From positions 13,796 through 77,795 of the forward strand of contig JAZDHH010000015.1 of the NCBI GenBank assembly GCA_043806015.1: a DNA stretch of 64,000 nucleotides, in the 5' to 3' direction. The notes under the pieces were generated by a model. That model was given only the letters and a program-made list of their open reading frames with translations. It was not told the origin of the DNA and did not search any database. This document shows, piece after piece, positions 362 through 62,762 of the stretch. The DNA is from Nanobdellota archaeon. GTDB lineage: Archaea > Nanobdellota > Nanobdellia > Woesearchaeales > JAHIVG01. The position numbers and the translations under genes are program-made. How positions within the stretch are numbered: the stretch's first letter is position 1; each line of letters starts with the position of its first letter.

Positions 362-511
362 CGCCAAGGAAGGAGGACGCCTTCAAGGCCCTCGAGGGCA
401 TTGCCCGGGAAGGCAAATCCAGGAAAGAGCCAGCGAAGAAGGGAGCGGGCAAGAAGGATGAGGATGTCTTCGAGAAGCTTAAGAAGATCTCCAAGAAGTA
501 GGGGGAAACGC

Positions 512-1003
512 ATGCGAAAAGCCCAGATCCAAAGCCAGGTGTTCGTCTTCATCTTCGCCGCGGTCCTTATGGGGCTCATCTTCTTCTTCGGCTGGAAATG
601 GTTCAACCAGCTCAACGACAGCCGCAGGGAAGTCATGTTCCTCGAGTTCAAGGACGACCTCAAGGCCGCACTCGAATCAAAGCGCTACGGCGACAGGGAC
701 GAGGTGCGGCTGAAGCTGCCAGGCACTGCGAAGGAGCTGTGCTTCGTGGACCTTGACAAGGATGTAACTGCAACCACGTGGCCGGCCTCTCAAGGGCATT
801 CCCTGATGAAGGACAGTGTCGAGTCCGGCCAGCAGATCAACGCCTTCCTCGTGACTTCGAAAACTGTGCCGCTCGATTATGTGGGGAAGGTCACGGTCTC
901 TAATGCGGGTCTCATGTTCCTCTGCATCACCGCAAACGCTAACACAGTAACTTTCTGGCTGGAGGGCAAAGGTGACCATGTCGAAGTCTCGCCGACGACA
1001 TAA
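512..1003 (+). CDS. type IV pilin-like protein with class III signal peptide (MRKA|QIQSQVFVFIF…)
   Basis: Internal Met at 512 is preceded by GGGGG at 501-505. The N-terminus has the [KR][GAS]|Q-I motif followed by a hydrophobic helix. It is the first of five tandem pilin-like genes. Confidence 0.55.
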   Translation: MRKAQIQSQVFVFIFAAVLMGLIFFFGWKWFNQLNDSRREVMFLEFKDDLKAALESKRYGDRDEVRLKLPGTAKELCFVDLDKDVTATTWPASQGHSLMKDSVESGQQINAFLVTSKTVPLDYVGKVTVSNAGLMFLCITANANTVTFWLEGKGDHVEVSPTT

Positions 1004-2090
1004 GCGCGGCGCCATAGAGATGCAGTTCGCCTGGATCTTCATCCTTGTAGTAGGGGCCATCATCCTCGCCTTCTTCGTCATGATGGTGCAGAAGCACCGG
1101 ACCATCGCCAAGGAGGAGCAGATCCTGGAGATACGGACGCGGCTCGGCGCCATCCTCACGAACGCCAAGCAGAGCACAGGGACCTTGTTCAGGGTGACCT
1201 TGCCCAAGGAGCAGATGCGCCTCGACTGCTCTGGCCTCGCGATCGGCGAGAAGGGAGCGCTGATCGAAATGAGGGAAGCCTTCGGCCCAGACCTCATCAA
1301 GTCCAGCACTGGCGACACGTTCCTCTGGGTGGTTGACTGGAGCGTGCCTTTCAAGGTCGACAACATGCTGCTCATCACAACGCCGAACGTGCGATACGCA
1401 GTGGCTTACACACCAGGTGAGGTCGGCGGCGAAGACTTGCTTGAGGCCTTGCCCGACAACCTGTCCGTGACTCCCCTTGACCTAACGAGCACTAGTTTAG
1501 CCGAGGTTGTCCAAGGTCTCTCTGACCAAAACCATTACAAGGTCAGGATCGTAAGAATCAAGGAGTATAATGGGGGAGATCCAGACACGGAAATCGGGAC
1601 TGTGAGCCCCCCCGTCCAGATTACCAAGCCGAAGGACAAGGATGTAACGCTGGTCGCCATTGATATCGTTAAGCAAGGCATCGGAGACCCCCTTGACGGC
1701 TACGGGACCGTCACCTTCTACACGAAGCAAGGCAGCAGCTTTGTCAAGGTCGGCGAAGCGCCCTACTTTGGGCGGGCGCTCCTGTACGGAGCCGTATTTT
1801 CTGATAATTTCGACACCTACAACTGCACGCTCAAAAAGGCATTCGGCCACCTGCGGCAGGTCGCGACCACCCTGAAAATCCGGAGCAGCGAGCTCATGAA
1901 TTATTCCATCCAATACTCGGGCTGGTGCGGCGACCCTGCCCAGTATGACCCGAGCGTCAACAAGCTCAACGACATCATCGCCAACGCCGTGCCAGTCGGC
2001 GAAAAGATGAATTTGCTGTACGCTGCGGGCAGGCAGGTCGTAGGAGCGAACCGAGCCCTGCAGCTGAAATCCTGCCCGCTCATCTATTGA
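972..2090 (+). CDS. large pilin-like/pilus-associated protein, class III signal peptide (…KRG|AIEMQFAWIFILVV…)
   Basis: N-terminal basic residues, then G|A-I-E and a hydrophobic segment. The body is a 372-aa soluble domain. It overlaps the upstream pilin gene. Confidence 0.5.
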   Translation: MTMSKSRRRHKRGAIEMQFAWIFILVVGAIILAFFVMMVQKHRTIAKEEQILEIRTRLGAILTNAKQSTGTLFRVTLPKEQMRLDCSGLAIGEKGALIEMREAFGPDLIKSSTGDTFLWVVDWSVPFKVDNMLLITTPNVRYAVAYTPGEVGGEDLLEALPDNLSVTPLDLTSTSLAEVVQGLSDQNHYKVRIVRIKEYNGGDPDTEIGTVSPPVQITKPKDKDVTLVAIDIVKQGIGDPLDGYGTVTFYTKQGSSFVKVGEAPYFGRALLYGAVFSDNFDTYNCTLKKAFGHLRQVATTLKIRSSELMNYSIQYSGWCGDPAQYDPSVNKLNDIIANAVPVGEKMNLLYAAGRQVVGANRALQLKSCPLIY

Positions 2091-2100
2091 ACAGGAACCA

Positions 2101-2598
2101 TTGACCATGAAACGCAGCCAGATCAAGATGACAGAGAACATCGCGATCATCTTCGTATTCTCGCTCCTCCTGATGGCAGGGCTTGTCTTCTACGTCAGGG
2201 TCAAGGAAGGCATGATGAAGGACAAGCAGGCGGCTGCCAACGACCTCGAGTCCATCGAGGTCGCGCAGCGCATCGCCTACCTCTCCGAGATCCGATGCAC
2301 GCGTGACAACGTTGAAGTGCCCAACTGCATAGACGCCCTCAAGGCAGGGATCGTCGCCAAACATAGTGCCCGTTTCCCTGAAGATTACTTTTTAACCTTC
2401 GGCAGGACCAAGGTCATCCTCCGGATCGTTTATCCTCCGCCTATCGCTCCTGACACAGGCAACCTGACTATCTTCGACTTCGCCTGCACTGACTGCAAGC
2501 AGCACAAGCGGGCCTTTATCCCGGTCTCCATCTACAATCCGACAGCCCCCACAGGGTACGGCTTCGGCTACCTCGACATCACCCTGCAGCTCCCATGA
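2101..2598 (+). CDS. pilin-like protein (MKRS|QIKMTENIAIIFVF…); alternative start at 2107
   Basis: Class III signal-peptide-like N-terminus followed by a hydrophobic helix. It is tandem with the neighbouring pilin-like genes. Confidence 0.5.
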   Translation: MTMKRSQIKMTENIAIIFVFSLLLMAGLVFYVRVKEGMMKDKQAAANDLESIEVAQRIAYLSEIRCTRDNVEVPNCIDALKAGIVAKHSARFPEDYFLTFGRTKVILRIVYPPPIAPDTGNLTIFDFACTDCKQHKRAFIPVSIYNPTAPTGYGFGYLDITLQLP

Positions 2599-3062
2599 AA
2601 AAAGCCCAGACAGAAATCCTCGGCCTTGCACTGGTGATCGTGCTCATCAGCCTGGGGCTCCTCTTCGTGGTGCAGTTCCTGGTCAACAAGCAGCCTGAGG
2701 GAAGCAGGGAAGACTACCTGGACAGCCAGCTGGCGAACCATTTCCTCAGCGCCGTGCTGGTGACGCAGAGCGCGGACTGCAAGGGCAAGCTGCTCCGCGA
2801 CGTGGCCATCGCCTGCGCGGACGGGAACTACCTGACCTGCAACGGAGGGGAGACTGCCTGCGAATATTTTAATGTGACTGTTGCACAAATCATTGCCCAA
2901 TCACTCGTCGTCTGGAAACAGGATTTCGAGCTCTGGATCAACGTTTCCGGCGATGACATGTACCATAATCTCAATGGCACTTGCAAATCCTGGCGGCGCG
3001 CGACCTTCCCGCTGCAGACCCAGACGAGGGGAACGCTGATCGCCGATCTCAAGATTTGCTGA
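2595..3062 (+). CDS. pilin-like protein (MKKA|QTEILGLALVIVLI…)
   Basis: Class III signal peptide motif. Its start overlaps the previous gene's stop in an ATGA arrangement. Confidence 0.55.
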   Translation: MKKAQTEILGLALVIVLISLGLLFVVQFLVNKQPEGSREDYLDSQLANHFLSAVLVTQSADCKGKLLRDVAIACADGNYLTCNGGETACEYFNVTVAQIIAQSLVVWKQDFELWINVSGDDMYHNLNGTCKSWRRATFPLQTQTRGTLIADLKIC

Positions 3063-3124
3063 AAGCCATCGCAACCTTTAAATACTCCTGTGCAGGATAA
3101 TGCCCCAGAAACGAGGTGACCTTC

Positions 3125-3382
3125 ATGAAGGGCCAAGGAATCTCCATCAACGTGATTATCATCGCAGCACTGGCATTGCTTGTCCTTGTCGTGCTCGCGG
3201 TCGTATTCGTCAACAGGACAGACATCTTCGTCAAGAACACCGAAGGCGTGAAGTTCTGCACCGAGACGCTCGGCGGCCAATGCGTAACCAAAGTCAACAA
3301 TGCCTGCCCGACAGGGCAGATGAAGATCGGCGTCTGCGGCAATGGCGAGGACGCGCAGTTCTGCTGCAAGCAAGGCCAATAG
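3125..3382 (+). CDS. small pilin-like protein (MKG|QGISINVIIIAALALLV…) with Cys-rich C-terminus
   Basis: Class III signal peptide followed by a short soluble domain with four Cys. A T-rich terminator lies at 3386-3400. Confidence 0.55.
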   Translation: MKGQGISINVIIIAALALLVLVVLAVVFVNRTDIFVKNTEGVKFCTETLGGQCVTKVNNACPTGQMKIGVCGNGEDAQFCCKQGQ

Positions 3383-3445
3383 GCCTTCTTTCTTTTTTTC
3401 TTCACAACATTTTTAAAACCCGACCCATTCTGCCTTTTCTGAGGG

Positions 3446-12216: not shown

Positions 12217-12780
12217 ATGCTCAAGCGAGAGCTCCGCGTCCTCGGCATAGACGACACGCCTTTCGACAAGCATCGCGACAAGACAGCGACGCTCATCGGC
12301 ATCGTCTACCGGGGCGGCTCCTTCCCTGATGGACTGCTCTCCGCCACCGTCCGAGTCGACGGGACAGACGGGACGGCGGTCATCGCGCGGATGGTCAACC
12401 AGAGCAAGTTCAAGGAGCAGCTCCGCGCCATCCTCCTGAAAGGCATCGCTGTCGCGGGCTTCAACCTCATCGACATCAGGGCGCTCTCCCGGAGGACAAG
12501 GCTGCCGGCCATCGTGGTGATGAGACATATCCCGAAGAGCGATGAGATGGCCTCTGCCCTCAATAAGCTCGGCCTTTCATCTCAGGCCGCCATCCTAAAC
12601 CGGGTCCCGAAGATCCATCGCGCCGGGAAGCTGCTGTTCCAATGCGCGGGATGCTCGCAGCAGCATGCCGCCGAGGTCATCGCGCTCACGACCACGCACG
12701 GCAACCTGCCGGAACCGCTGCGCGTCGCACACCTCATCGCCAGCGGCATCACGCTGGGCGAGAGCAGGGGGAAGGCCTAG
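12217..12780 (+). CDS. DUF99/UPF0215 family protein
   Basis: N-terminal …LRVLGIDDTPF… is characteristic of archaeal DUF99 proteins. Confidence 0.55.
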   Translation: MLKRELRVLGIDDTPFDKHRDKTATLIGIVYRGGSFPDGLLSATVRVDGTDGTAVIARMVNQSKFKEQLRAILLKGIAVAGFNLIDIRALSRRTRLPAIVVMRHIPKSDEMASALNKLGLSSQAAILNRVPKIHRAGKLLFQCAGCSQQHAAEVIALTTTHGNLPEPLRVAHLIASGITLGESRGKA

Positions 12781-12941
12781 CGCTTCTGTGGTTCCCGAAA
12801 AATTCTTTTTCATTACGTCCTTCTAGAAAGGAATTTTTCTTTCGAAGAGCAGTTTATTCACCCCCGCAGATTCTTTTTCCGGATTTCTCTCCGACAATGA
12901 TAAGAAGAATCGATACAGCGGACTTCTTTGAGGTGATAGTG

Positions 12942-14261
12942 ATGAAATGGATCGTCATGTTCCAATTCATGTTTTTGTTATCATCAATAGCCGTAGCCAC
13001 CGACCACGTCGTCATCAGCGAAGTGTTGTTCTGGGCGAACGGCACGGACACCGGCGGCGAGTTCGTGGAGCTCTACAACCCGACCGAGCAGGACGTCGAC
13101 ATCTCGGGGTGGACGCTCGCGACCGAGAGCTCTGAGACCGATGCGACCATACCGGAGAATATCACCCTTCTCGCGCACCATTTCTACCTCATAGCCGACG
13201 CGGGCTGGGACAGCCTCAAGGACAACCCTGACTGGCCGAGCGCGGACCATGAGGAGACCATCACGCTGTCCAATGCCGATTCAGGGATCGCCCTCGTCTC
13301 GCAAAGCGATATCGTCGACGCTGCAGGTTGGGGAGACCCGAGTGGAATAGAAGAAGGCAAGTATGAGGGCGCTCCCTTCCCCGAGATGGCCAAAGCCTGG
13401 AGCCTTGAACGGAAGCCCGGCATCGAGGATCCTGAAGGGGGGAATGGCATCGACACGGACGAGAATTCCGCAGACTTCCTCCTGCGCATCCCTGAGCCGC
13501 AGGGCTCTGGAAGCGAAGAGACCCCTTTTGCGCCGGACACGGTCAACAACTTCAGCATCCAGTTCACTGTCAGCGGAAATGGCGTGGACATAATCTCCTT
13601 CAGCATTGAAGATGATGGCGCGGGGGAAGGAATCCAAGCGATGCCCTTCCCGGGCGAAAGCCGCAACCTGAGTATCAACGCGACCGTGCTCCATGCCGAG
13701 AACGTCACGGTAAGCTTCCTCAACACCACGGTCTTGCTCACCCCCCTCAACGAGACCCACTGGAGAGGGAAGGTTGCCCTCCCGTTCTTCTCTGCGCCGG
13801 GCAACCATTCTCTCTCCATATCCGCCCAGGGCGCTGAAGGGAATGACACGAACCAGACCCGGATCGATGTCCTTGAGGTCGCCGCCCTTGGCCTCGATAG
13901 CGCGGGCATGACCTTCGCAGCCTCCCCGGGTGAGAGCTTCACCGCCTGGGGAGACGATGACATCACCACCGATGACCGGCCGACTGTCCGCAACATCGGC
14001 AACGTGCCGCTCGACCTAAAGGCCAAAGGAACGAGCTTCAGCAACGGCGAGGCAGTGCTTCCGCCCGAGATATCCGGCTTCAACCTGAACATGAGCCAAA
14101 GCTTCACGCCGCTCTCCGAAAGCTGGGCAACGGTCGAGCTGGGCATGGCCTTCGGTGACATGCTGACCGCTCCCTTGAGCGTCAGGCTTGATCTTCCCGC
14201 TGACGCGGAAGGAGGCACTTACATCGGCAGCATGCTGCTCTCCGGCGTCAAGGCAGAATGA
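12942..14261 (+). CDS. secreted lamin-tail-domain (LTD) surface protein
   Basis: Signal peptide MKWIVMFQFMFLLSSIAVA. LTD signature VVISEV…GEFVELYNPT…DISGW. Multiple N-x-S/T sequons. GAGGTGA RBS before ATG 12942. Confidence 0.65.
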   Translation: MKWIVMFQFMFLLSSIAVATDHVVISEVLFWANGTDTGGEFVELYNPTEQDVDISGWTLATESSETDATIPENITLLAHHFYLIADAGWDSLKDNPDWPSADHEETITLSNADSGIALVSQSDIVDAAGWGDPSGIEEGKYEGAPFPEMAKAWSLERKPGIEDPEGGNGIDTDENSADFLLRIPEPQGSGSEETPFAPDTVNNFSIQFTVSGNGVDIISFSIEDDGAGEGIQAMPFPGESRNLSINATVLHAENVTVSFLNTTVLLTPLNETHWRGKVALPFFSAPGNHSLSISAQGAEGNDTNQTRIDVLEVAALGLDSAGMTFAASPGESFTAWGDDDITTDDRPTVRNIGNVPLDLKAKGTSFSNGEAVLPPEISGFNLNMSQSFTPLSESWATVELGMAFGDMLTAPLSVRLDLPADAEGGTYIGSMLLSGVKAE

Positions 14262-14827
14262 GACTGCTGCTCATCCTGATCTTCCTTCCTGTGGCGGACG
14301 CCCTGACCCTTGGCGTCTCGCCGCCGGAGATACGGCTCGGCGAGGTGGAGCCAGGGAAAAACGTGCCCATATCTGTCATTGCCTTCAATCCCGAGCCAGA
14401 GGCGCAAAGCTTTGTGGTCGAAGGGCTTTCAGCAAAGAAAACCGTGCGCGTCAAGGCCAGAGGCAAGGCGGTCGTTGACGGGATGATTGAAGCGCCGGAA
14501 GAGCCGGGAAACCACACGCTGCTCATCACCTTTTCCCCCAAGACCAAAGAACCTGGAATGGCGCCAGGCATCTCGGTGAAGGTCACACTGATGGTGAAAG
14601 GAAAGCCGCCGGAAGTAAGGCTACCTGGACTTCAGCCCGCAGGGCAGAGCATCACCGCCTCGGCAGTTTCTGAGGCTCCCGAAGGGACAGGAAAGCCCAA
14701 CGGCCTAGTCGGCGGAGCGATCATCGGCGGCATCGTCGGGCCTGGGCTGTTCTTCTATCGCATGGTCAGGCGACGGAAGTGGAGGAAGCCCAATCACAAG
14801 AGAAAAAGGGGAGATGATCAGGTATAA
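14258..14827 (+). CDS. secreted protein with C-terminal TM anchor and basic tail
   Basis: Signal peptide, Gly-rich C-terminal TM segment followed by RRRKWRKPNHKRKR. ATGA overlap with the LTD gene. Confidence 0.5.
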   Translation: MRLLLILIFLPVADALTLGVSPPEIRLGEVEPGKNVPISVIAFNPEPEAQSFVVEGLSAKKTVRVKARGKAVVDGMIEAPEEPGNHTLLITFSPKTKEPGMAPGISVKVTLMVKGKPPEVRLPGLQPAGQSITASAVSEAPEGTGKPNGLVGGAIIGGIVGPGLFFYRMVRRRKWRKPNHKRKRGDDQV

Positions 14828-19084: not shown

Positions 19085-19712
19085 CAGCAGGATCCGGGAA
19101 ATCCGCGACAGGATGGCGAAAGCTGCCCATCGCTGCGGCCGCCAGCCTAGAGAGGTCAGGCTCATGGCAGCGACCAAGCACGCGGCCGTCGAGCAAATCA
19201 GGGATGCTATCGCTTCTGGCATCGGCCTCATCGGCGAGAACTATGTGCAGGACGCCGCTCAGAAGTCCCCGCAGCTTCCGCAGGTGGAGAAGCACTTCAT
19301 CGGCTCGCTGCAGAGCAACAAGGTAAAGCTTGCCGTCAAGCTCTTCGACTGCATCCAGAGCGTCGACAGCCTCAGGCTCGCGAAGGAAATCGACAAAGCC
19401 GCCCTCGAGCAGAACAAGGCCATGCCGGTGTTCATAGAGATAAACCCCGGCGAGGAGAGCAAGGGCGGCGTGCCCTTCGGCGACGCAGGAGCCCTTTACA
19501 ACCAGATGGTCAAGCTGCCCCACATCAAAATTCGGGGGTTGATGGGCATCGCCCCTTTGCACGGCGATGCCCGCGCTTTCTTCCGCAGGATGAAAAAAAC
19601 CGCGGATGAGCTGGGGCTGAAAGAGCTGAGCATGGGCATGAGCGATGACTTCGAGATCGCCATCGAGGAGGGCAGCACGATGGTGCGGGTCGGGAGAGCG
19701 CTATTCGCGTGA
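19062..19712 (+). CDS. yggS: YggS/PROSC family PLP-binding protein
   Basis: …VRLMAATKHAAVEQI…, the typical YggS TIM-barrel sequence, ~216 aa. Confidence 0.85.
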   Translation: MRDSPSINSRIREIRDRMAKAAHRCGRQPREVRLMAATKHAAVEQIRDAIASGIGLIGENYVQDAAQKSPQLPQVEKHFIGSLQSNKVKLAVKLFDCIQSVDSLRLAKEIDKAALEQNKAMPVFIEINPGEESKGGVPFGDAGALYNQMVKLPHIKIRGLMGIAPLHGDARAFFRRMKKTADELGLKELSMGMSDDFEIAIEEGSTMVRVGRALFA

Positions 19713-21020
19713 GGCTTTCTTTCTTTTCACCGGCTCTTCCGGCTTCTGCGATTTCCTTCGCGCATAGCTCACCGGGTTCCTGATCCGCTGGCAGAGGTTG
19801 TCCGGCGTGCATATGCGCAAGTCTTCGTAGAACGAGCGGCAGTTGGGCGGCAATATCGGCTTCTTCCCCTTGCTGTAGCGCATGTGCCCGGTGATGATGA
19901 CCTGGCGGAGCTGCTGCGGGTTCGCCTGGTTCCATTCCAACAGCCTCTTCTCGATCGCCTCGTGGCCCCAGCCACAGCACGAAAGGAAATTCGTGAGCGC
20001 GAAGAGGAAGCGCTTCTTGCCATCCGGCAATCCCTTGAGGCCGAGGCGCATGCAGGGAGGGAACGCTGTTTCAACTATCGCCTCCTCTGGAAGATCATAC
20101 TCCTTGCTCTCACCATGCTCTTCCGGCAGTTCGGGCATGAAATCAAAGGCTTGTATGGTGAGGCGCCGGGCCTCGCCTGGCTCGGCCTTTCGCCTCAGGA
20201 AAGCCCCTTCCACCAAATGGGGGGCTTGAGCCATTTCAGGCATGAAGGCAAGGATCTCCGCCGGCTTCACAGGAACGGACACCAGGCCGGATTTCTCGTT
20301 GAAGCTGTAGCTTGACCGATAGAGGTGACGAGATGAGATGAGGACTGTGTCGATGGCAAGGAAAGGCTCGACGTTGAGGAAGTGTACGATGTTGCCGGAC
20401 TTGTCCCTCGTCGTTGCCTGGACATCCCTCGCCGCGATGCCCGTCTTCTCAAGAACCCTCGAGAAATCGCCTTGCTCGAGCTCCAGGATCCGCTCTCCCA
20501 AGGGGAGCTGGATCATCGCCTTGAGGTAGAAGGCTATGCGGCGCGGAGCATCGGGGAAGAGCAGCTTTGTCTCGACGCTGCCGATCTTGGTGGGGAAGGC
20601 TTCGAAGGGGATGCCGATGTGGAATCCCTTGTTGCCGGAGAACTTGCAAGTGATCGCATTAATGCCATGGTGCTGCAAGGCCTTGATCACCAGGTCTGCC
20701 GCGATCTTGGAATAGTCCAGGAACTTGCAATCGATGTCGAGGACGAGATCCCAGCCGGTGCGGAGGCTTTCGATGTCGCCCCGCTGCATGCCGGGGCTGA
20801 GCTGCAGGGCGTTCTGCCAGCGCTCCTCAGAGATGTGGAACGACGTCGCGCCCTTCTTCACCAGCTCGAGGACGTCGCTCGGGTTGCGGAGCACGTCAGG
20901 CCGCTTGCCAAAGCCCTCGGCGTAGCGAACAGCCACTTCCTTGTCGGCTGCTTCCTCAACGATGGCTTCCTGCACCTCACGCTGCTTGTAATGCCTGAGC
21001 AGGACACTAGGGTGAATCAT
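19701..21020 (-). CDS. priSL: DNA primase: PriS catalytic domain fused to PriL C-terminal Fe-S domain (ORF extends to 21254; start at 21020 preferred)
   Basis: PriS-like LVLDIDCK region. The C-terminal region has the PPCM motif and four Cys typical of the PriL Fe-S domain. The ATG at 21020 shares the TCATGA site with the divergent Toprim gene. Confidence 0.7.
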   Translation of the reverse strand: MIHPSVLLRHYKQREVQEAIVEEAADKEVAVRYAEGFGKRPDVLRNPSDVLELVKKGATSFHISEERWQNALQLSPGMQRGDIESLRTGWDLVLDIDCKFLDYSKIAADLVIKALQHHGINAITCKFSGNKGFHIGIPFEAFPTKIGSVETKLLFPDAPRRIAFYLKAMIQLPLGERILELEQGDFSRVLEKTGIAARDVQATTRDKSGNIVHFLNVEPFLAIDTVLISSRHLYRSSYSFNEKSGLVSVPVKPAEILAFMPEMAQAPHLVEGAFLRRKAEPGEARRLTIQAFDFMPELPEEHGESKEYDLPEEAIVETAFPPCMRLGLKGLPDGKKRFLFALTNFLSCCGWGHEAIEKRLLEWNQANPQQLRQVIITGHMRYSKGKKPILPPNCRSFYEDLRICTPDNLCQRIRNPVSYARRKSQKPEEPVKRKKASRE

Positions 21021-21450
21021 GAAAAAGGATAAAAGCTGCGGCTTTTTATGTCTTGCCATGGATTGCCTGGAAGGCTGGCTGATGGCCTTGCGCTCGAGCA
21101 GGAAGCTCATCGTCGTCGAGGGGAAAAAGGACGCCGCTGCCCTGGCCCAGTTCGGCATCCCCGCCATCCCCCTTAACCGGAGGCCGCTCTTCTCCTTCGC
21201 CGAGGACATCGCAGCGAGGACAAAGGACTGCGTCATCCTCACCGACCTCGACACGGAAGGGAAGCGGCTCTACGCGATGCTCAAGGAGCACCTGACCAGG
21301 AACGGCGTGCGCATCGACACCCAGTTCAGGGAATGGCTCTTCCGCGAGACGACCCTGCGGCAGATCGAAGGCCTTGTCAGCTATGCGGAGAAAGAGGAAA
21401 AGAAAAAAGAAGGGAAGCTCACTCCCCGTCAAAGCTCGGATTGTCGATGA
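21019..21450 (+). CDS. small Toprim-domain protein (start uncertain; alternative Met at ~21082)
   Basis: KLIVVEGKKDAAAL…VILTDLDTEGKRL Toprim motifs. Confidence 0.6.
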   Translation: MKKDKSCGFLCLAMDCLEGWLMALRSSRKLIVVEGKKDAAALAQFGIPAIPLNRRPLFSFAEDIAARTKDCVILTDLDTEGKRLYAMLKEHLTRNGVRIDTQFREWLFRETTLRQIEGLVSYAEKEEKKKEGKLTPRQSSDCR

Positions 21451-26480: not shown

Positions 26481-26611
26481 TTCCCCATGAACACGAAAGA
26501 GTTCCTTTCCGTCGACTTCCATGACATATGGAACTGGATTCTGGGAATCATTGCCATCGGCCTGCTTTGGTGGGGGATCAGCACCATCGTCAAGGTGATG
26601 AGCGTGAAGCC

Positions 26612-27541
26612 ATGAAAGAACGCTATTTCCTCCTCCGGGAAGGCGAGGAGTTCGCCTTCGCCCCCGCGATGCTGCTGCCGACGCCGGAAAGCGCCCAAAT
26701 CCTCACGAATCCGACGAGGATGCAGATCCTCAGGCTGCTCGCGAAACGCGAGATGTACCCCGCAGAGATCGCCCAGAAGATCGGGATGCACGAACAGAAG
26801 GTCTACTACCACATCCGGCAGCTCCTGAACAGCGGAATCCTCACCATCACCGAGAAGACCGAGATCAGGGGCACGGTGGCGAAGCGCTTCAGGCCCGTGT
26901 CCATGAACTTCTGCCTCAGCCTCGGCAGCGACTGGAAAACAATGGTGAATCCCTTCGGGGCGAAGAAGGACGCTCCAGAGTCGAGATTCCTCGAGCCGTT
27001 CGTCATGGACAACGCCCTCAACGCCTCCATCGTCGTCGGCAGCCCGGACCCGCACGGCCCGCTCAAGGCCCGGGCGAGGGACAGCCATTATGCCATCGAG
27101 CTCGGCCTCTATCTTGGCCAGTTCTGCCAGACAAAGACTCACTTTTCCGCTATGCTGGACGTCGACGTGCGCCTCTCCAGCGACCCGGGCAACCTCATCC
27201 TTGTCGGCGGCCCGATCACCAATCTCATCATCGCCCAGTTCAACGACAACCTGCCGGCGCGCTTCAGCGACAAGAAACCCTGGGAGATCATCGGGCCGAG
27301 CGGCAAGCATTACATCGAGGAGACCACCGGCATGGTCGCCAGGATGCGCAATCCGCTCTTCCCGAAGAGCTGGATACTGGCCCTGGCAGGCATACGGTCT
27401 GTCGGAACGAAAGCTGCGGTTTTGGCCTTGGCCAAGGGCGTCTCCGCTGATTTCAAGGGCCAGGAGCCCTATTGCCATGTCATCAACGGATTTGACCTTG
27501 ATGGAGACGGGAGGGTAGATAGCTATGAGATACTGGACTAA
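26612..27541 (+). CDS. ArsR-like winged-helix transcriptional regulator with large C-terminal domain of unknown function
   Basis: N-terminal …TNPTRMQILRLLAKREMYPAEIAQKIGMHEQKVYYHIRQL… HTH. GGTGA RBS before ATG 26612. The antisense 359-aa ORF was rejected. Confidence 0.6.
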   Translation: MKERYFLLREGEEFAFAPAMLLPTPESAQILTNPTRMQILRLLAKREMYPAEIAQKIGMHEQKVYYHIRQLLNSGILTITEKTEIRGTVAKRFRPVSMNFCLSLGSDWKTMVNPFGAKKDAPESRFLEPFVMDNALNASIVVGSPDPHGPLKARARDSHYAIELGLYLGQFCQTKTHFSAMLDVDVRLSSDPGNLILVGGPITNLIIAQFNDNLPARFSDKKPWEIIGPSGKHYIEETTGMVARMRNPLFPKSWILALAGIRSVGTKAAVLALAKGVSADFKGQEPYCHVINGFDLDGDGRVDSYEILD

Positions 27542-41495: not shown

Positions 41496-42323
41496 TTATG
41501 CTGGCCGAACAGAGAATTTCTTCACCAGCCTGGAGGGGTGGTAGCTCAGCTTCGCCTTCCGCAGCCCGGGGATGCCCAGGTCCTGCTCCCGATTGATCCA
41601 TGGGAAAGCGGAAAGGCGCTCGGCAAAGGCCTTGTTGACGAATGCGGAAAGCCCCCGGTAGTCGTTGTTGGCCTTCTCGAAGTGGATGACGTACGTGTCC
41701 TGGTTAAGGGGCTCGCCGAGGGCGAAGGCCTCGATGATGCCGTTGACGCGCACCGCGACTCCCTGGACAGCCAGTTCTTTGAGACACCTGAAGGATGCTT
41801 GGATCGCGTCATATTCGCCCTTGAGGAGCTCCCCTTCGCAATTGTGTTTCCTGCACCAGTCTTCCATGACCACGAGGCATTCATCCCTGTTTTTCAGAGA
41901 GACCTCCTCGACCTCAGGGGACAGCGCCGTGGCGCTATTGACGAAGCTGCGCTTCTCCTCATAACGGCTTCCCTGCAGCGTCGCAAGATCGCCCTGAGCG
42001 TAGACGTAGTCCTCTTGCGGCCGGTCCTCCTCGACAGCGAATCCCAGGGCTTTTGCTTTGGCAGCGAAAGACTCGTCCGTACGCAGCACCGGAGCATCGA
42101 TGCTTGGAAGCAGCTTTTCCGGAGCAGCCCCCACGGGCATGAAGAAGAAGGGCTTCATGACAGCAGCCTTGATGAGCAGATGGCCTTGTCGCTCTTCCCA
42201 GATTATTGGCCGAGCCTGCGTCCAGCAGAACAGGTTGGTGAACGTCAGCTCGGAGATGACAGGGGGGAAGCGGTTGAAATAGCGGTCAAAGAGTGTCTTG
42301 TCCTTGAGCTGGATTTCCTGCAT
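41496..42323 (-). CDS. DUF2156 (MprF C-terminal/GNAT-like) domain protein
   Basis: …LFDRYFNRFPPVISELTFTNLFCW… is typical of the DUF2156 family. Confidence 0.55.
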   Translation of the reverse strand: MQEIQLKDKTLFDRYFNRFPPVISELTFTNLFCWTQARPIIWEERQGHLLIKAAVMKPFFFMPVGAAPEKLLPSIDAPVLRTDESFAAKAKALGFAVEEDRPQEDYVYAQGDLATLQGSRYEEKRSFVNSATALSPEVEEVSLKNRDECLVVMEDWCRKHNCEGELLKGEYDAIQASFRCLKELAVQGVAVRVNGIIEAFALGEPLNQDTYVIHFEKANNDYRGLSAFVNKAFAERLSAFPWINREQDLGIPGLRKAKLSYHPSRLVKKFSVRPA

Positions 42324-42327
42324 GCGT

Positions 42328-43488
42328 TCAGATGCCCGCGTCCTTTCGGATGATCTCTGCCTTGTCCGTCCTCTCCCAGGTGAAGTCAGGATCATCCCTG
42401 CCGAAATGGCCGTACGCGGCGGTCTTCCTGAAGATCGGCCGTCGCAGCTTCAGATGCTCGATGATCGCTGCCGGCTTCATGGAGAAGTGCTTGAACACCA
42501 GCTCGCTGATGCGCTCTTCAGGGATCTTGTTCGTGCCGAAGCATTCGACCGCCACCGAGGTCGGCTGCGCGACGCCGATGCAGTAGGACACGGACACTTC
42601 GCATTTCTCTGCGAGGCCCGCGGCAACGAGGTTCTTGGCAATATAGCGGGCCATGTAGGCACCGCTCCGGTCGACCTTGCTCGGATCCTTTCCGGAGAAG
42701 CATCCTCCGCCATGGCGGCCGATGCCGCCATACGTATCGACGATGATCTTCCTTCCGGTGACCCCGGTGTCGCCCTCCGGTCCGCCGATCACGAAGCGGC
42801 CGGTCGCGTTGACAAATATCTTTGTCTTGGGGTCAAGCCATCTGCCCATGACCGGCTGGATGACGTTGGTGATTATGTCCTCCCGCACCCTCGCTTCCGC
42901 TACGGATTCCTGATGCTGCGCCGCGATGACCACCGCGTCGGATCGCAGGGCTTTGCCATCATGATATTCGATGGTGACCTGCGCCTTGCCGTCCGGCCCG
43001 AGATAGGGCAGCAGCTTGCCTTTCCTGACTTCCGCGAGCCTCCGCGTCAGCTTATGGGCGAGCAGGATGGGGAGAGGCATAAGCTCAGGGGTCTCGTTGC
43101 AGGCGAAGCCATACATTATGCCTTGGTCGCCGGCGCCCTGCTCATGGTCCTTGTCCTGGTTGACGCCGGCGGCGATGTCCGGGCTTTGCGCATGGATGGA
43201 GACGAGAACGCCTGCGTCATAGGCATCGATGCCATAGCTCGGGTCGGTGTAGCCGATCTCCGCGAGGACATTGCGAGTGAGCTTCTGGACATCCACGAAG
43301 CCTTTCGTGGTGACTTCGCCGGCGCAGATGATGAGGCCGGTCGTGGTCAAGCACTCAATCGCGACCCTGGACGCGGGATCCTGCCGTATGAGCTCATCGA
43401 CGATAGCGTCGCTGATCTGGTCGCAGATCTTGTCCGGATGGCCTTCGGTGACACTCTCAGAGGTAACTAATTTTTTCATCGCAATCAC
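42328..43488 (-). CDS. mat: S-adenosylmethionine synthetase, archaeal type (MAT)
   Basis: Full-length archaeal MAT, 386 aa. TATATAAAT at 43512-43520 upstream. Confidence 0.95.
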
Positions 43489-44217: not shown

Positions 44218-44270
44218 GACTGCAGAAAGGTGAGAAAACTATTTAAACACTCCGACCTTCGAGACCTCTT

Positions 44271-47392: not shown

Positions 47393-47493
47393 AGGCCCCG
47401 CCTCCGTAGCATAGTAGCCATTGCGGCGGACTTGTATATTGCCGGAGAAATCCGCAGGTCGAGGGTGCAACTCCCTCCGGAGGCTCTTTGCCC

Positions 47494-61841: not shown

Positions 61842-62762
61842 TCAGAGCAGCGGCGAGACGTAGACCTCTACTAACGCCGCGACGACAAGCAAGCCAAGCG
61901 CGATGAAGACCAAGTTGGCGGTGTCGATCACGATGTTCCTGAAGCGGTCGGTCTCGAAGCTGTGGCGCACGATGGCGATGGAGATTATGCCGCCGGCGAC
62001 GCCCACGATCACATAGGCGAGGATCTCGAGGCCGCCGTGGAAGGCGACCCGCAGGAAGCCGTGTGAAAAGGACGCGAAATAGCCACCGATCTTAGCGATG
62101 CCGACCGCGCCGAGATAGGTCGCCAGCTTGTTGTTGATGAGGTTGCCCATGTAGACGCCGATCACCGCCGCGTTCCACAGCAGCACGAAGATTGCGCCGA
62201 ATCCGTACACCAGGGCGAAAAGCAGGCAGAAGAACATCACGCCGAGATTGTTGATGAATATCCGGAGGAGGGCGCCCGAGCTGAAGGCGTTGCCTGTGAC
62301 GTTGGAGTTGATGCTCTGGATGGTCTTGATCTGCGCCTCGAAAAGCGTCGCGGTGATGCCGCCGGGAAGCACGAGGAACCAGAAGAGCACGGAAAGCAGG
62401 GCGCCGAGGAACAGGTAGAAGAAGAGCATGACCGCCTTCGAATGCTCCTTGAGCAGCGGCAGTTCGGAAGCCGAGGTCTCGTCCTTCTTCTCCTCCAGGC
62501 GAAGCGTGTTGTAGATCAGGGGGATGGCCGCGAGCGTGGTCAGGAACACCATGATCATAGACGCGTAGCTCATGAAGATCCACCAGGAGAGGAACAGGGC
62601 TACGGAGTTGTAAAGGAACCCCACGAAGAGCATGAGATATGGCTTCGATTCCGCAGAAAGCGGGTTCGATATCGACTCCAGCACCATAGACGAGAAAAGG
62701 ACAAGCCGGTCTTTTAAATGTTTCGACAGCTTTAAATAGCATCGAGGATTCCCCGATAGCAT
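61842..62762 (-). CDS. DUF95/SpoIIM-family membrane protein
   Basis: …FINNLGVMFFCLLFALVYGFGAIFVLLWNAAVIG… is the typical topology and sequence. Confidence 0.6.
   Translation of the reverse strand: MLSGNPRCYLKLSKHLKDRLVLFSSMVLESISNPLSAESKPYLMLFVGFLYNSVALFLSWWIFMSYASMIMVFLTTLAAIPLIYNTLRLEEKKDETSASELPLLKEHSKAVMLFFYLFLGALLSVLFWFLVLPGGITATLFEAQIKTIQSINSNVTGNAFSSGALLRIFINNLGVMFFCLLFALVYGFGAIFVLLWNAAVIGVYMGNLINNKLATYLGAVGIAKIGGYFASFSHGFLRVAFHGGLEILAYVIVGVAGGIISIAIVRHSFETDRFRNIVIDTANLVFIALGLLVVAALVEVYVSPLL

Follow-up and report, generated by a model that had tools for sequence, protein, structure and literature searches.

Introduction

Archaeal prepilins follow a simple leader rule, with Gly, Ala or Ser at −1, a charged residue (Lys/Arg or Asp/Glu) at −2, and the cleavage site lying ahead of the hydrophobic domain (PMC4371748). 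In the Epd pilus of Methanococcus maripaludis – type IV filament (TFF) system 1 – the sites are RA↓QI in EpdA, KG↓QV in EpdB and EpdC, and KG↓QI in EpdE (arrows mark cleavage), with a conserved Gln at +1 that the peptidase EppA needs (PMC4371748, PMC3875500). The Epd pilus is the closest known system to the locus described here, a set of five consecutive prepilin-like genes (g1 to g5) on the plus strand of a 64,000-nucleotide (nt) stretch of a Nanobdellota archaeon contig (JAZDHH010000015.1 of assembly GCA_043806015.1, forward-strand positions 13,796 to 77,795). This whole stretch is referred to as the window, and coordinates are given relative to its first nucleotide.

Pilin genes lie outside the type IV pilus (T4P) operons in most archaea. 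In M. maripaludis the ATPase, two platform genes and the major pilin gene are at separate loci, and the Haloferax pilA1-6 genes are not co-regulated with pilB/pilC (PMC4371748). According to a 2026 census, DPANN archaea have machinery of TFF system 1 (Epd-like) and of subsystem 4A, and a DPANN genome study found machinery genes present and pilins unannotated in some genomes. DPANN archaea depend on cell contact, and the operon presented here supplies candidate pilin families, a conserved arrangement of genes, and two confident structural models.

Here, we propose that g1 to g5 probably encode the precursors of type IV filament subunits, as prepilins that carry class III signal peptides, in a DPANN archaeon of Woesearchaeota/Nanoarchaeia type; we are less sure of the roles of the individual proteins than of their nature as filament subunits. 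The five families are new and pilin-like, and we infer their cleavage, their assembly into a filament, their division into major and minor pilins, and a function in attachment. On their own, the five genes would be unremarkable as an archaeal pilin cluster; it is the conserved, unannotated operon around them that adds the interest.

Results

Five consecutive genes with prepilin-type starts

Gene starts were assigned by reference to Shine-Dalgarno-like sites and homologous N-termini, and all five genes begin with ATG. Gene g1 (512-1003, 163 amino acids [aa]) starts MRKA↓QIQSQVFVFIF; g2 (978-2090, 370 aa) has the leader MSKSRRRHKRG↓ followed by AIEMQFAWIFIL, and its mature form begins AIE; g3 (2107-2598, 163 aa) starts MKRS↓QIKMTENIAIIFVF, with QIK after the site; g4 (2595-3062, 155 aa) starts MKKA↓QTEILGLALVIVL, with QTE after the site, Glu at +3 and Gly at +6; and g5 (3125-3382, 85 aa, of which 82 would remain in the mature protein) starts MKG↓QGISINVIIIAALALL, with QGI after the site. 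We propose g1, g3 and g4 as minor pilins and g5 as the major one. A 200-aa open reading frame (ORF) with a TTG start at 401 was considered as g1 and rejected as an artefact, because 401-501 is occupied, in a different frame, by the end of the gene upstream.

A preliminary description of this DNA had reported five consecutive plus-strand ORFs with class III prepilin starts, and these are real, with the motif kept across dozens of species in each family. Its size range of 85 to 372 aa holds at the lower end, for g5, but g2 is 370 aa from the ATG at 978 and reaches 372 aa only if started at a GTG at 972. The tight coupling that it described is seen in the 26-nt overlap of g1 with g2 and the ATGA joining g3 to g4, but not between g2 and g3 or between g4 and g5, which are separated by gaps of 16 nt and 62 nt. 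The T-rich terminator was also found, as a plus-strand hairpin (AAGGCC-AATA-GGCCTT, 3372-3387) that overlaps the g5 stop codon and is followed by a T-rich run extending to 3403; it is likely to mark the end of a transcription unit.

The gap between g4 and g5 contains a TATA-box-like sequence, TTTAAATA (3077-3084, plus strand), 41 nt ahead of the g5 start codon. This sequence occurs seven times in the window (at 3077, 4943, 8095, 44240, 46462, 47312 and 62731) against an expectation of 0.11, and several copies lie shortly 5′ of genes: that at 3077 before g5, that at 44240 before a minus-strand gene running from 44217, and that at 62731 before a gene at 62761. It probably serves as the TATA box in this genome, and because it is present in the g4-g5 gap and recurs before gene starts, g5 probably has a separate promoter of its own.

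The cysteines of g1 to g5 number 2, 4, 4, 6 and 6, all even, and each protein has one to three N-x-S/T sequons, with three in g4 alongside its six Cys. As read from the sequences, these features fit exported, disulfide-bonded and glycosylated extracellular domains. Coding potential is positive for all five genes, and their GC content at third codon positions is 0.76-0.78, compared with 0.84-0.91 for the housekeeping genes in the window.

The window has 58% GC and yields many overlapping ORFs on both strands, as would be expected if the five were spurious products of GC-rich DNA with a coincidental N-terminal pattern. Conservation rules this out: all five have full-length homologues in the same order in many species, at 25-36% identity, and with the positive coding statistics and the confident AlphaFold2 models presented below, we give spurious ORFs next to no credence.

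Genes g2, g3 and g4 are identical to the annotated hypothetical proteins V1735_05070, V1735_05075 and V1735_05080. The public start of V1735_05070 (g2) is an internal Met (MQFAW.., 356 aa), with loss of the basic leader and the cleavage motif; wrongly called starts of this kind would conceal the prepilin signature from automated tools.

A common leader motif on unrelated proteins

The basic leaders of the five proteins are 3-11 residues long and end in Lys/Arg followed by Gly/Ala/Ser, and the +1 residue is Gln in g1, g3, g4 and g5, and Ala in g2. All five conform to the class III leader rule, and hydropathy analysis places a single hydrophobic segment in each protein, directly after the motif, with no second segment elsewhere. 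When all six frames of the window were scanned with a pattern of our own making (a basic leader, Lys/Arg plus Gly/Ala/Ser, and a hydrophobic stretch), g1, g2, g4 and g5 were flagged and g3 was missed solely for the charged residues at its +3 to +7 positions. Four further sites, near 16.6, 29.2, 30.1 and 30.5 kb, do not have the combination of basic leader and Gln, and the start type of the five genes is unique within the window.

The motif is also retained across species. The +1 Gln is present in 60/60 members of the g3 family, 55/60 of g4, 44/52 of g1 and 80/103 of g5, and in the g1 family −2 is Lys/Arg and −1 is Ala, Ser or Gly. Other conserved positions are specific to one family: 59/60 g3 members have Glu at +6, 55/60 g4 members have Glu at +3 and likewise 55/60 have Gly at +6, and 53/73 g2 members have Gln at +5. 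In the g3 family, for which 40 homologues were recovered, Gln +1 and Glu +6 are essentially invariant.

A prepilin-type motif is common to at least eight families of the operon described below. The globular parts of g1 to g5, and of a further operon family (F2), have no mutual homology (hhalign probability <50%). Because the motif recurs in families that do not share globular homology, it points to a common processing or assembly signal, judging from sequence.

Three other classes of protein were considered and set aside. A cleavable Sec signal peptide does not agree with a motif that precedes the hydrophobic domain, or with a helix that runs on to residue 57-63; there is no flagellin domain in g1 to g5, as archaellins would have; and no binding-protein domain, as in the substrate-binding proteins of bindosomes.

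An exhaustive profile search with the g2 family gave 2,175 clusters at 50% identity, 1,840 of them with E≤1e-10, and among the best 150 of the 2,175 listed, nearly all are 320-390 aa long; a metagenome scan with g2 gave no match. A single-sequence homology search with g4 recovered only g4 itself and one relative at 80%. In the g5 family, the N-terminal 35 aa are nearly invariant (KKAQG-I/L-S-x-N-V/T-IIIAAIAL..VLVVL..IF.GR) and the C-terminus is highly variable with conserved Cys, usually ending in CC; relatives have one to three or more g5-type copies per locus, and a profile search of the PDB with this family found no match. The preliminary description had supposed one major pilin among the set, and the g5 family – conserved at its N-terminus, variable at its C-terminus, and present in multiple copies – fits that role.

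Predicted structures of g2 and g3

AlphaFold2 models were built for g2 and g3 only, using family alignments. The g2 model (predicted local distance difference test [pLDDT] 88.3, predicted template modelling score [pTM] 0.82) has a helix at residues 8-63, an alpha/beta domain and a C-terminal helical bundle, and four Cys are invariant in the g2 family alignment. The g3 model (pLDDT 91.7) has a helix at residues 2-57, a beta-hairpin, two short helices and four beta-strands. In each, the predicted N-terminal helix is 56 residues long and is followed by a globular, beta-rich domain, and this arrangement, if the models are correct, is a pilin-like architecture.

A conserved operon in related genomes

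Relatives of the locus were gathered from 24 g2 homologues and by scanning genomes that represent species; 80 loci were retained. A relative of g2 is present in at least 226 species genomes, named mostly as Woesearchaeota, Nanoarchaeia and Nanoarchaeota, with many third-party annotation (TPA) entries for 'uncultured Methanosarcinales' and a few bacterial bins. Operon contigs filed as Aminicenantes, Binatia, Dehalococcoidales or Methanosarcinales (including those of loci L010, L068 and L086) are probably misbinned or mislabelled.

Clustering of the ORFs gives a co-directional order that begins with two families (F15 and F8) and a gene for a giant protein of 1,000-2,700 aa, and continues with g1, g2, g3, g4 and one to three g5-type genes. 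After these come a tiny gene, one or two copies of F2, another tiny gene, F11, F9, F14 or F12, F7, further genes, and F13. Counted over those loci where each feature could be seen, and to be read as lower bounds, g1 is upstream of g2 in 55/78 loci, g3 and g4 are both downstream of g2 in 57/74, a protein of at least 700 aa is just upstream in 47/56, a g5-type gene is within 10 kb in 49/66, and F2 is within 10 kb in 37/48. Full operons contain up to ~18 prepilin-like genes, and most of the operon proteins start with K-K/R-A/G/S, often with Gln following, and then a hydrophobic helix. In three full operons (L048, L004 and L017) every protein examined has an N-terminal hydrophobic segment, and extra hydrophobic segments are present solely in the giant protein, as its C-terminal anchor, and in the two F2 copies of L004.

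The five-gene cluster does not stand by itself, as the preliminary description had it: upstream is a gene for a giant surface protein, truncated by the edge of the window, and together they form the proximal part of a large operon conserved in Woesearchaeota-type DPANN archaea. In the window this part consists of the tail of the giant gene, g1 to g4, and one g5, and the next gene is that for RPA, with which the operon also ends in L004, L046, L048 and L087. The distal block of ~10-12 genes (F2, F11, F9, F14/F12, F7 and F13) that lies between the small pilins and RPA in relatives is not here, since just 63 nt (3383-3445) separate g5 from RPA; it is either missing from this locus or relocated. 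Compact versions of the operon are also present in L015, L031 and L035. We found no description of this operon in Woesearchaeota in the searchable literature, in which subscription journals are mostly outside coverage.

The 3′ end of the giant surface-protein gene occupies positions 1-501 of the window (plus strand). It specifies a transmembrane helix at the C-terminus (..AGAIGYYVY), followed by a tail rich in Pro, Lys and Glu that ends in DVFEKLKKISKK at the stop codon. It is read in frame 2 until ~250 and then in frame 1 to the stop at 499-501, with the switch at a run of CCCC at ~247-250. This change of frame has two candidate sources, an indel introduced in assembly, or else a true frameshift or pseudogene. 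The joined translation of frames 2 and 1 (residues 1-166) aligns with the C-termini of proteins of 725-3,148 aa, with E-values, calculated without composition correction, down to 4e-9, and in relatives these proteins adjoin g1 directly upstream. Pfam signals in the operon are confined to the giant proteins of relatives, which have Ig-like, TSP3 and CarboxypepD_reg domains.

In L005/L006 (18349-20987) the operon runs into a gene for a prepilin-like protein with a weak Amidase_3 match, and then one for an SLT (lytic transglycosylase) protein of more than 1,000 aa; these neighbours hint at cell-wall attack on a bacterial partner.

Operons of this composition could also be imagined to encode a short pseudopilus acting as a piston, similar to those of type II secretion systems (T2SS) or competence systems, in which g5 would be the major and g1 to g4 the minor pseudopilins, and whose job would be to export the giant protein or a wall hydrolase, or to take up DNA from a host, rather than adhesion. 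One major and four minor subunits, one of them large, recall GspG with GspH-I-J-K. The hydrolases that follow the operon in L005/L006 would suit such a role, but hydrolase neighbours occur in one examined lineage only, and the ~18 prepilin-like genes of the fullest operons far exceed the number in a T2SS. DPANN archaea are thought to import DNA and nutrients via pili (PMC9563170); however, archaea have no outer membrane, there is no secretin partner, and Gsp and Com pseudopilins were matched neither in sequence nor in structure. We regard a pseudopilus as improbable, and decidedly more so than the filament subunits that we propose.

Assembly machinery and the evidence against filament subunits

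Several results weigh against assigning g1 to g5 to a type IV filament, the first group of which concerns assembly machinery. Pfam searches of the ~30 proteins encoded in the window downstream of the cluster found no secretion ATPase, platform protein or A24 peptidase, and regular expressions for the T2SSE-type Walker A and A24 GxGD motifs had zero matches across 1.41 Mb of sequence read in all six frames, comprising the window and 86 loci. ATPase, platform and peptidase genes are likewise absent within ±10 kb at 84 related loci, and no polytopic platform- or peptidase-like membrane protein was seen in the operon copies examined. A few Walker-A matches in called proteins lie within giant or prepilin-like proteins of the operon or in flanking genes, and none of these fits the secretion-ATPase pattern; Pfam analysis of ten proteins of one full operon also recovered no pilin, ATPase, platform or peptidase family.

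A second group concerns similarity to known pilins. None of the five proteins matches a pilin model, such as Pfam Class_IIIsignal/DUF361, Pilin_N or N_methyl, at E≤1, and 140 members of the g1, g3, g4 and g5 families have no match to Pfam pilin models, or to the archaeal flagellin and pilin N-terminal models of NCBIfam, at E≤0.01; one family member alone matched PilV (E=0.005), and there is no consistent Gsp/Pil family domain. Structural comparison with solved pilins and adhesins gave no significant match. Glu is at +3 in g2 and g4 and at +6 in g3, and g1 and g5 have no Glu close to their starts, so that the +5 Glu of Epd is absent, and the Ser at −1 of g3 is less usual. The giant protein, finally, has its own C-terminal membrane anchor and is not an obvious tip adhesin.

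The machinery is never linked to the operon in the loci examined, and this is not unusual for archaea. The preliminary description was right that no ATPase or platform gene is near the cluster, as holds for the window downstream of it, but took this to be noteworthy; because archaeal pilin genes mostly lie apart from their machinery, as in Methanococcus, Haloferax and most other archaea, it is an ordinary situation.

The same observations can be accommodated by a fixed, S-layer-like envelope scaffold, in which uncleaved signal-anchor (type II) proteins and the giant anchored protein would be displayed on the cell without any type IV machinery, and where the K-K-A-Q motif would serve topology or partner recognition. 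Machinery genes in 0/84 loci, an N-terminal hydrophobic segment on all operon proteins examined with no polytopic platform or peptidase among them, and the failure to find a sequence or fold match to pilins all agree with this, as do the Ig-like, CarboxypepD_reg and TSP3 domains and C-terminal anchor of the giant protein, which resemble those of many archaeal envelope proteins, and the very wide conservation of the operon beside housekeeping genes such as that for RPA. However, the positive-inside rule demands no fixed triplet of K/R, G/A/S and Gln, whereas many unrelated families retain this one, and it corresponds to an established site of peptidase cleavage. Moreover, the predicted 56-residue helices far exceed a membrane span, as in pilins, and the hyper-conserved helix, variable tip and multiple copies of the g5 family are typical of pilins that polymerise. 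A scaffold of this kind is in our view unlikely, if slightly less so than the pseudopilus, and we continue to favour type IV filament subunits.

Other features of the window

The rest of the window encodes housekeeping functions, including RPA, RadA, a fused PriS-PriL primase, PAN, MCM, TBP, GatD/E, and others. The primase is a 517-aa ORF (19701-21254, minus strand) with DNA_primase_S and DNA_primase_lrg domains, a fusion known in some DPANN archaea. Positions 12642-14827 (plus strand) encode another probable pair of surface proteins: one with a lamin-tail domain (LTD), whose ORF seems to be misframed or given the wrong start over its first ~100 codons, and after it one of 189 aa that begins in the manner of a secretion signal. 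There are also a protein with an ArsR-type helix-turn-helix (HTH) and an S_layer_C domain (26528-27541, plus strand) and a protein matching the C-terminal domain of phosphatidylglycerol lysyltransferase (LPG_synthase_C; 41496-42395, minus strand), both unusual in a small archaeal genome. The length of a tRNA-Thr(TGT) gene at 47400-47486 (plus strand), 87 nt, points to either an intron or a long variable region.

Discussion

We propose that the N-terminal hydrophobic helix of each of the five proteins would insert it into the membrane, and that a membrane prepilin peptidase encoded elsewhere would trim the leader of 3-11 residues after the K/R-G/A/S pair. Because +1 is Gln, this enzyme is probably EppA-like and would cut before Gln +1 (or before Ala +1 in g2); an EppA-like peptidase specific for +1 Gln is thus a prediction from the operon. 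An unlinked ATPase and platform would then extrude the subunits into a fibre with a core formed by the bundled N-terminal helices. The best candidate for the main subunit is g5, because it is small, Cys-rich, has its own probable TATA box, and belongs to a family that is multi-copy in relatives, conserved at the N-terminus and variable at the C-terminus. The products of g1 to g4 – four unrelated globular domains on similar helices, in fixed order and presumably co-transcribed with the giant surface protein – may be minor pilins of low abundance, which would initiate or cap the fibre or connect it with the giant protein. Such a fibre would likely serve to attach the cell to a surface or to a host cell.

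We raise, more tentatively, the possibility that the operon encodes a previously undescribed surface apparatus with which the host-dependent Woesearchaeota/Nanoarchaeia would hold on to partners, either a new type IV filament subtype or a pilin-derived envelope structure. It might comprise one or two giant anchored proteins and up to ~18 prepilin-like proteins of more than 10 unrelated and unannotated families, around an invariant core of g1-g2-g3-g4 and small Cys-rich pilins, of which the genome of the window would perhaps have a naturally reduced, core-only version. If the operon does encode a filament or apparatus of this type, it gives access to the means by which archaea of the Woesearchaeota type attach to surfaces or hosts, and widens the known range of type IV filament systems.

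The likeness to the Epd pilus is in the processing sites (RA↓QI, KG↓QV and KG↓QI in Epd; KA↓QI, RG↓AI, RS↓QI, KA↓QT and KG↓QG here), in the presence of several minor pilins of differing size in one operon, in a tiny major pilin (74 aa in Epd and 85 aa for g5), and in the location of pilin genes apart from those for the ATPase and the two platform proteins. However, g1 to g5 have no detectable homology to DUF361/Class_IIIsignal or to any Epd family, the +5 Glu is not kept, and −1 is frequently occupied by Ala or Ser in place of Gly. In Epd, the peptidase EppA is encoded within the operon, whereas the operon here and in relatives is without a peptidase and has instead giant surface proteins at its 5′ end and up to ~18 prepilin-like genes. 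The main Epd pilin is described as being without a C-terminal globular domain, in contrast to the Cys-rich C-terminal knot of g5.

By analogy only, the locus also recalls the GspH-I-J-K and FimU-PilV-W-X/PilY1 sets, in which four unrelated subunits, one much larger than the others, are co-transcribed and share an N-terminal helix, a very large surface protein is encoded adjacent to them, and a small major subunit is separate. In contrast to these, g1 to g5 have no G↓F/M-x-x-x-E N-methylation motif and no match to them in sequence or fold, and the giant protein is self-anchored, in an archaeon with a single membrane.

The Haloferax PilA1-6 and other arCOG pilins are likewise encoded by tandem genes without machinery, and have a conserved hydrophobic N-terminus and variable C-termini, but they belong to recognised families (DUF1628/Pilin_N and the PilA arCOGs), are PibD substrates without the +1 Gln, and form no fixed multi-family operon with giant proteins. 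At the 5′ end of the VARTIG loci of Thermococcales, as in the operon, is the gene for a large secreted protein with Ig domains, which often has a C-terminal transmembrane helix, and genes for small proteins with predicted transmembrane segments follow it. VARTIG loci, compared here by description, are hypervariable and island-borne, whereas the operon reported here has preserved its families and their order over hundreds of species, and its small proteins have a prepilin-type motif in common.

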